From: Escherichia coli
GTDB taxonomy: Bacteria; Pseudomonadota; Gammaproteobacteria; Enterobacterales; Enterobacteriaceae
Assembly (NCBI RefSeq): GCF_003334815.1
Contig: NZ_QOWO01000059.1
Length of the DNA stretch: 12,341 bases
Reading direction: 5' to 3' (one strand)
Position numbers and translations under genes: made by a program. This document shows positions 2,070 through 2,198 of this stretch, piece by piece (position 1 is the stretch's first letter; each line of letters starts with the position of its first letter). The notes under the pieces were generated by a model that was given only the letters and a program-made list of their open reading frames with translations, did no database searches and was not told the origin of the DNA.

Positions 2070-2075
2070 TCCCTT

Positions 2076-2098
2076 TGCCGGGAGCCTGTCGCCCGGCA
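2076..2098 (+). terminator. Hairpin downstream of ahr (weak intrinsic terminator candidate)
   Basis: t-gccggg (2076..2082), 9-nt loop, cccggc-a (2092..2098), 7 bp after the ahr stop. The downstream tract acttaaatctcttt is only moderately T-rich, so termination efficiency is uncertain. Confidence 0.3.
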
Positions 2099-2198
2099 CT
2101 TAAATCTCTTTGGAAGGCGTCTCGCAATCTGCTGAATTTAGCGGTGAAGAGTGCACAGCCGTTGCCTATACTCCAGGCAGGAAACTGGAGGAAATCTC

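Follow-up and report, generated by a model that had tools for sequence, protein, structure and literature searches.

Genetic organization of the leuX-valS window

The DNA analysed here, referred to as the window, is a 12,341 bp (12.3 kb) segment of the Escherichia coli chromosome in the neighborhood of leuX. Several complete E. coli genomes, among them ML35 and porcine ETEC and O139:H1 strains, match positions 78-12183 at 100% identity, and gene coordinates were mapped from the RefSeq annotation of strain E2865, which is identical to the window over positions 1500-2800. The tRNA-Leu(CAA) gene leuX (770..854, minus strand) was found by ARAGORN and by the Rfam tRNA family, in agreement with the RefSeq annotation of the matching strains, and marks an integration and recombination hotspot directly upstream of ahr. 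The ahr gene (also yjgB; 1050..2069, plus strand, within an ORF at 1008-2069) is annotated in E2865 as an NADPH-dependent aldehyde reductase of 339 amino acids and is intact. It is followed on the same strand by yjgR (2199..3701), also intact by ORF and annotation, which encodes a HerA-like P-loop protein of 500 amino acids. To the right of yjgR, ORFs and annotation place lptG and lptF on the minus strand (within 3820-6002), then pepA, holC and valS on the plus strand, and finally a truncated yjgN, again on the minus strand.

Both ends of the window are IS termini. At the left, positions 1-77 match a terminus of ISKpn26, an IS5-like element that interrupts the leuX-island integrase gene; at the right, positions 12184-12341 match the end of an IS4-family ISVsa5 (IS10-like), which cuts off yjgN. 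This pair of elements appears to be specific to the source strain, since the complete E. coli genomes of the collection match positions 78-12183 at most.

Several intergenic and intragenic features were recorded to the right of yjgR. The yjgR-lptG intergenic region (3702-3819) is 118 bp long, 42 bp shorter than the 160 bp of K-12, and the additional REP-like segment of K-12 matches the pepA-holC repeats of the window in inverted orientation. These repeats form a tandem array (7786-8081) with 3.1 copies of a 96-bp REP-containing unit, of which K-12 has one copy, and the pepA-holC intergenic region measures 353 bp in the window against 159 bp in K-12. Matches to Rfam naRNA4 (REP325-type) were located there on the minus strand, at 7855-7930 and 7951-8026. 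Inside pepA, and antisense to it, there is a full-length match to Rfam Ysr276, a family of Yersinia antisense sRNAs (6827-7021, minus strand, 175 bits), which may merely reflect conservation of the pepA coding sequence.

Anatomy of the ahr-yjgR spacer

Between the ahr stop codon, whose last base is 2069, and the yjgR ATG (2199-2201) lies an intergenic region of 129 bp (2070-2198) that is free of genes and overlapped by nothing but mechanical ORFs of at most 75 amino acids. It is composed of two parts: a stretch of 90 bp specific to the idn-less allele (2070..2159), delimited by blastn breakpoints against K-12, and a conserved block adjoining yjgR (2160..2198, plus strand), which alignment of yjgR upstream regions showed to be common to the idn+ and idn- alleles. 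Direct and inverted repeats, IS ends and Rfam families were searched for in the spacer and none of note was found.

Folding of the left part predicted a hairpin, UGCCGGG-(9 nt)-CCCGGCA (2076..2098, plus strand), in which positions 2076-2082 pair with 2092-2098 to form a GC-rich stem of 7 bp closed by a 9-nt loop. Its folding energy is -13.5 kcal/mol, weak in comparison with shuffled sequences (z = -1.2), and it is followed by a weakly T-rich stretch that would give a weakly U-rich tail (ACUUAAAUCUCUUU). The consensus promoter and terminator scans of positions 1900-2400 called nothing, the hairpin included. E. albertii and Citrobacter werkmanii have a hairpin in this position too, built from another stem sequence, and all the other alleles compared also have one just past the ahr stop. 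Since each allele supplies a hairpin at that spot, the one at 2076-2098 is regarded as a putative ahr terminator.

The last 39 bp (2160-2198), which probably comprise the yjgR core promoter and ribosome-binding site, hold a -10-like TATACT (2167-2172) and the Shine-Dalgarno sequence GGAGG (2187-2191); the block is also found in Citrobacter, Enterobacter cloacae and Leclercia. Overlapping this Shine-Dalgarno sequence is a short inverted repeat, CTCCAG(8 nt)CTGGAG (2171-2176/2185-2190), kept in E. albertii, in Citrobacter (as 5 bp) and in both idn alleles; it could modulate yjgR translation. The 129-bp spacer is intact and conserved, and looks like a normal functional intergenic region.

Comparison with E. 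coli K-12

In the annotation of K-12 W3110 the gene order is ahr, idnK (minus strand), idnD, idnO, idnT, idnR and yjgR. A blastn comparison showed that the window aligns to K-12 from position 769 to 2069, exactly where the ahr stop codon ends (position 4913 of the K-12 locus), and that the alignment restarts at window position 2160 (position 10001 of the K-12 locus), 39 bp before the yjgR start. A 5,087-bp block carrying idnK and idnDOTR therefore stands in K-12 where the window has 90 bp (2070-2159). Nucleotide identity to K-12 is 97.6% for ahr, 95.7% for yjgR and 99.1% for lptGF.

A first-pass annotation of the window, made from its sequence, had described ahr and yjgR as neighbors 129 bp apart and the idn cluster as present between them in K-12 and missing here; the ORFs and RefSeq annotation show those coordinates to be exact, and K-12 annotation and blastn bear out the gene content. 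Its figure of about 7 kb for the K-12 insert was too large, the measured length being about 5.1 kb. It had also reported a hairpin and no IS or repeat scar at the junction, which agrees with the searches for IS ends, repeats and Rfam matches described above, with the qualification that the hairpin is weak.

The GC content of the idn block is 47.3% (43.4% in idnK), against 53.8-55.6% for ahr, yjgR, lptGF and pepA. Its annotated genes are idnK, idnD, idnO, idnT and idnR only, with no mobility genes among them, and no direct or inverted repeats of at least 7 bp were found between its two ends. Among the features by which mobile islands are recognized, the block thus shows a deviant base composition and lacks both an integrase or transposase and att or direct repeats.

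Distribution of the two alleles in E. coli

Population counts were obtained from 5,426 complete E. coli genomes. A 1.3-kb probe across the junction was contiguous in 3,213 genomes (~59%), and the 90-bp allele-specific stretch was detected in 3,223, with 90-100% identity. The K-12 idn block matched at 2,070 places distributed over 2,055 genomes, with no plasmid among them, and the idn haplotype was at least 99% identical in 1,973 of these 2,055 carriers. The junction probe gave 7,487 places, implying about 2,057 genomes with a split junction. This number equals that of the idn+ genomes, indicating that in E. coli the idn genes are essentially always found at this site and essentially never together with a contiguous junction.

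About 148 genomes had neither the spacer nor the idn block; in the one that was looked at, most of ahr was deleted, and the place counts of the junction probe suggest that most of them lack one flank. The kinase gene that occupies this position in Enterobacter and Leclercia (see below) was sought as a third E. coli allele, and only distant matches (67%) were obtained, in 18 genomes, wherever in the genome they lay. A candidate intermediate allele in strain MLI104K2 (NZ_CP116925.1) was set aside, being mostly homopolymer and unique to one assembly. Its ahr-yjgR interval (8959-9886 of the extracted locus, ~930 bp), for which the RefSeq assembly gives a LacI pseudogene and one hypothetical protein, is largely made of homopolymers interspersed with fragments of idnT, idnR and the idn-less spacer, and has the appearance of an error introduced in assembly or polishing.

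Both states were found within several phylogroups: in A, K-12 is idn+ and H10407 idn-; in B1, O104:H4 is idn+ and IAI1 idn-; in B2, UTI89 is idn+ and O25b:H4 idn-; and O157:H7, of phylogroup E, is idn-less. The absence of these genes from individual strains has been described before. Nissle 1917 is devoid of idnK-idnDOTR, which are present in K-12 and CFT073 (PMC7924626), and idnK was undetected in ST131 H30/H22 strains (PMC5369007). The idn-less junction is the majority state of an already documented gene-content polymorphism and not a strain-specific deletion.

Recombination around the ahr-yjgR slot

Phylogenetic incongruence in E. coli is strongest at two hotspots, and the leuX region is one of them (Touchon et al. 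2009, PMC2617782). Pairwise identity among E. coli strains was 93-98% for ahr and yjgR, in a mosaic pattern, against 98.4-100% for lptG and lptF, and the similarity patterns of ahr and yjgR tracked neither idn state nor phylogroup. This high diversity is consistent with the leuX recombination hotspot.

Two comparisons between strains bear on how the alleles move. O104:H4 (idn+) and IAI1 (idn-) are nearly identical on the right side of the indel (2 differences in 1,542 positions) and less so on its left (44 in 1,300), which places a recombination breakpoint at the indel. Between K-12 and UTI89, both idn+, the idn genes are 98.7-100% identical while ahr and yjgR are only ~95.4% identical. These patterns fit a scar-free replacement of alleles through homologous recombination, by which strains would switch from one state to the other.

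Content of the slot in other Enterobacteriaceae

Outgroup loci were obtained by scanning species-representative genomes with YjgR, and at least six Enterobacteriaceae loci were annotated by tblastn. In E. albertii and C. werkmanii, ahr and yjgR lie ~130 bp apart and their spacers align with the full length of that of the window. The allele-specific part is 92% identical in E. albertii and ~84% in C. werkmanii, and the right half of the spacer (CTTTGGAA..CTCGCAATCT..AATTTAGCGGTGAAGAGTGC) is strongly kept in both species.

The idn+ arrangement was also found outside E. coli. In Citrobacter sp. FP75 the order is ahr-idnK-idnDOTR-yjgR, and the right junction is that of K-12 (..CTCTTTG[CC/AT]GGAC, followed directly by [G/A]TTGCCTATACTCC); its idn genes are 78-83% identical to those of K-12, and the flanks 82-85%. 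For comparison, identity in ahr and yjgR is 91-93% within the Citrobacter pair and 82-83% between E. coli and Citrobacter. The flanks follow the genus and the slot content follows the allele, and the divergence of the alleles themselves is at genus level (spacer ~84%, idn 78-83%).

The second-largest cluster of IdnD homologues among those listed (83% identity, 3,917 member sequences) is represented on a contig that carries an integrase gene, ahr, idnK, idnDOTR, lptG, lptF and pepA, and no yjgR. Its gene order and its 78-88% identity to K-12 suggest that it comes from Salmonella. Behind idnR (9340-9545 of the extracted locus) this contig keeps a recognizable remnant of that right junction, a degenerate yjgR promoter block (TTGCCTGTGCT), which REP-like sequence separates from lptG; its lineage apparently lost yjgR and kept idn. 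In Kluyvera intermedia the idnK-idnDOTR unit was found at an unrelated locus.

A third content was observed in Enterobacter cloacae and Leclercia, whose slot holds a gene on the opposite strand for a single-chain dihydroxyacetone-kinase-like protein of 548-566 amino acids (8217-9863 and 8226-9926 in the loci L010 and L012). In these genera the sequence upstream of yjgR is similar to the idn-less spacer in its right half (CGCAA...GAATTTA) and not to the idn+ junction. In all the genera compared save Enterobacter sp. Ag1, the conserved yjgR upstream block starts exactly at GTTGCCTATACTCC (window 2160-2161), and this start coincides with the point where the two E. coli alleles converge. The stretch between the ahr stop and the yjgR core promoter block is a slot of variable content among Enterobacteriaceae, of which the window carries the empty version.

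Origin of the idn-less junction

The reading that we favor, and consider probable, is that the ahr-yjgR slot beside the leuX hotspot exists in two alleles, of which the window has the one without idn. The idn-less spacer would be the older arrangement, and the idn genes would have been acquired long ago, replacing the 90 bp; both alleles would have persisted, or been re-exchanged, since before the split of Escherichia and Citrobacter, and within E. coli homologous recombination in the flanking DNA would switch the state without leaving a scar. Three observations favor the spacer as the older of the two: the lower GC content of the idn block (47.3% vs 54-56%), the presence in the spacer of sequence missing from the idn+ allele, and the likeness of its right half to the yjgR upstream region of Enterobacter and Leclercia. 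The direction of change is not proven, because three genera share the idn genes at exactly this site, and on that count the idn+ state could equally be ancestral in the group of Escherichia, Salmonella and Citrobacter. Both alleles are nonetheless clearly old.

Under the most serious alternative, idn+ was the ancestral state of Escherichia, Salmonella and Citrobacter, and the spacer goes back to a single, ancient loss or replacement of the cluster, after which recombination spread it within and between genera. The shared site and right junction of E. coli, Citrobacter FP75 and the Salmonella-like contig speak for it, as does the divergence of the idn genes between genera (78-83%), which matches that of the flanks as vertical descent predicts. 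This history, however, provides no source for the 90-bp spacer within the idn+ allele and leaves the low GC content of the idn genes to be accounted for; moreover, Enterobacter and Leclercia have no idn genes here and their yjgR upstream region is spacer-like, and the unrelated location of the Kluyvera cluster indicates that the cassette moves. We regard it as rather unlikely.

A clean deletion of idn from a K-12-like idn+ allele, in this strain or its recent ancestors, is very unlikely. The absence of an IS or scar at the junction would suit such an event, and so would the 12-mer TCTCTTTGCCGG, which directly follows the ahr stop codon in genomes without idn (O157 has it exactly, the window with one mismatch) and recurs in K-12 at the right edge of the insert, next to the common 39 bp. 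This 12-mer is the sole element common to the spacer and the K-12 idn block, which means that at least 76 bp of the spacer cannot come from an extant idn+ allele. Derivation of the spacer from idn DNA was also considered and rejected: local alignment of the 90 bp with the K-12 idn block, on both strands, gave a best score of 23, no better than shuffled sequences (mean 21.2, maximum 27). The junction is accordingly not built only from sequence flanking a deletion, since 90 bp of it (76 discounting the 12-mer region) are absent from the idn+ allele and no deletion can create them. Besides, E. albertii and C. werkmanii have the same spacer, as do 3,223 E. coli genomes spread over several phylogroups. 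With no K-12 counterpart and with this conservation in other species, the 90 bp could not result from a simple deletion of a K-12-like allele. The first-pass annotation had left the choice between an ancestral state and a clean deletion; the former fits the data better, and the latter is contradicted by the 90 bp lacking an idn counterpart in K-12.

Extending the two-allele reading, the presence or absence of idn in the slot may be a very old polymorphism reaching across genera, with both alleles at genus-level divergence in Escherichia and Citrobacter and a single near-uniform idn haplotype spread across the E. coli phylogroups via the leuX hotspot. We put this forward tentatively, as a possibility with somewhat less than even chances. 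If true, it would imply either long-term upkeep by balancing or niche-dependent selection on the use of L-idonate and 5-ketogluconate, or repeated exchange between genera.

Functional consequences

The source strain lacks the GntII genes for IdnK, IdnD, IdnO, IdnT and IdnR at this locus and very probably altogether; their absence from the whole genome is made likely by the 5,426 E. coli genomes, in which idn+ genomes and split junctions agree in number and no copy lies on a plasmid. That this genome instead has the idn genes elsewhere on its chromosome or on a plasmid is extremely improbable: the genome is known here from 12.3 kb alone, a Kluyvera genome does carry the cluster at another locus, and unrelated, non-homologous idonate-like operons exist on some plasmids (PMC3251573), but none of the 2,070 idn places in the 2,055 carriers is on a plasmid and essentially no genome combines a contiguous junction with idn. 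The effect of this absence on growth is uncertain; Nissle 1917, which is without idn, still grows on gluconate and 5-ketogluconate (PMC7924626).

The strain falls in the E. coli majority without the subsidiary GntII/L-idonate genes, K-12 representing the minority state at this locus, and departures from K-12 need not be deletions. The locus is a tidy case of scar-free gain or loss of a metabolic cassette, with alleles conserved across genera and shuffled near leuX.

Comparison with known systems

The position of the junction, 1.2 kb from leuX, and the elevated, mosaic diversity of ahr and yjgR are as expected for the leuX hotspot. Unlike an integrase-mediated tRNA island, however, the idn indel lies on the far side of ahr and is accompanied by no integrase, att repeats or IS. 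In relation to the GntII/L-idonate locus of K-12, the window has the same neighborhood and gene order from leuX to valS, with orthologous ahr, yjgR, lptGF, pepA, holC and valS and the common 39 bp upstream of yjgR, but has, in place of the 5,087-bp idn block, 90 bp foreign to K-12. The contiguous ahr-yjgR arrangement of O157:H7, IAI1, H10407 and O111 has a 129-bp spacer as in the window, 95-100% identical to it; the spacer of the window differs from those of other idn-less E. coli only by single nucleotides, while the IS elements at both ends of the window are additional to what these strains carry.
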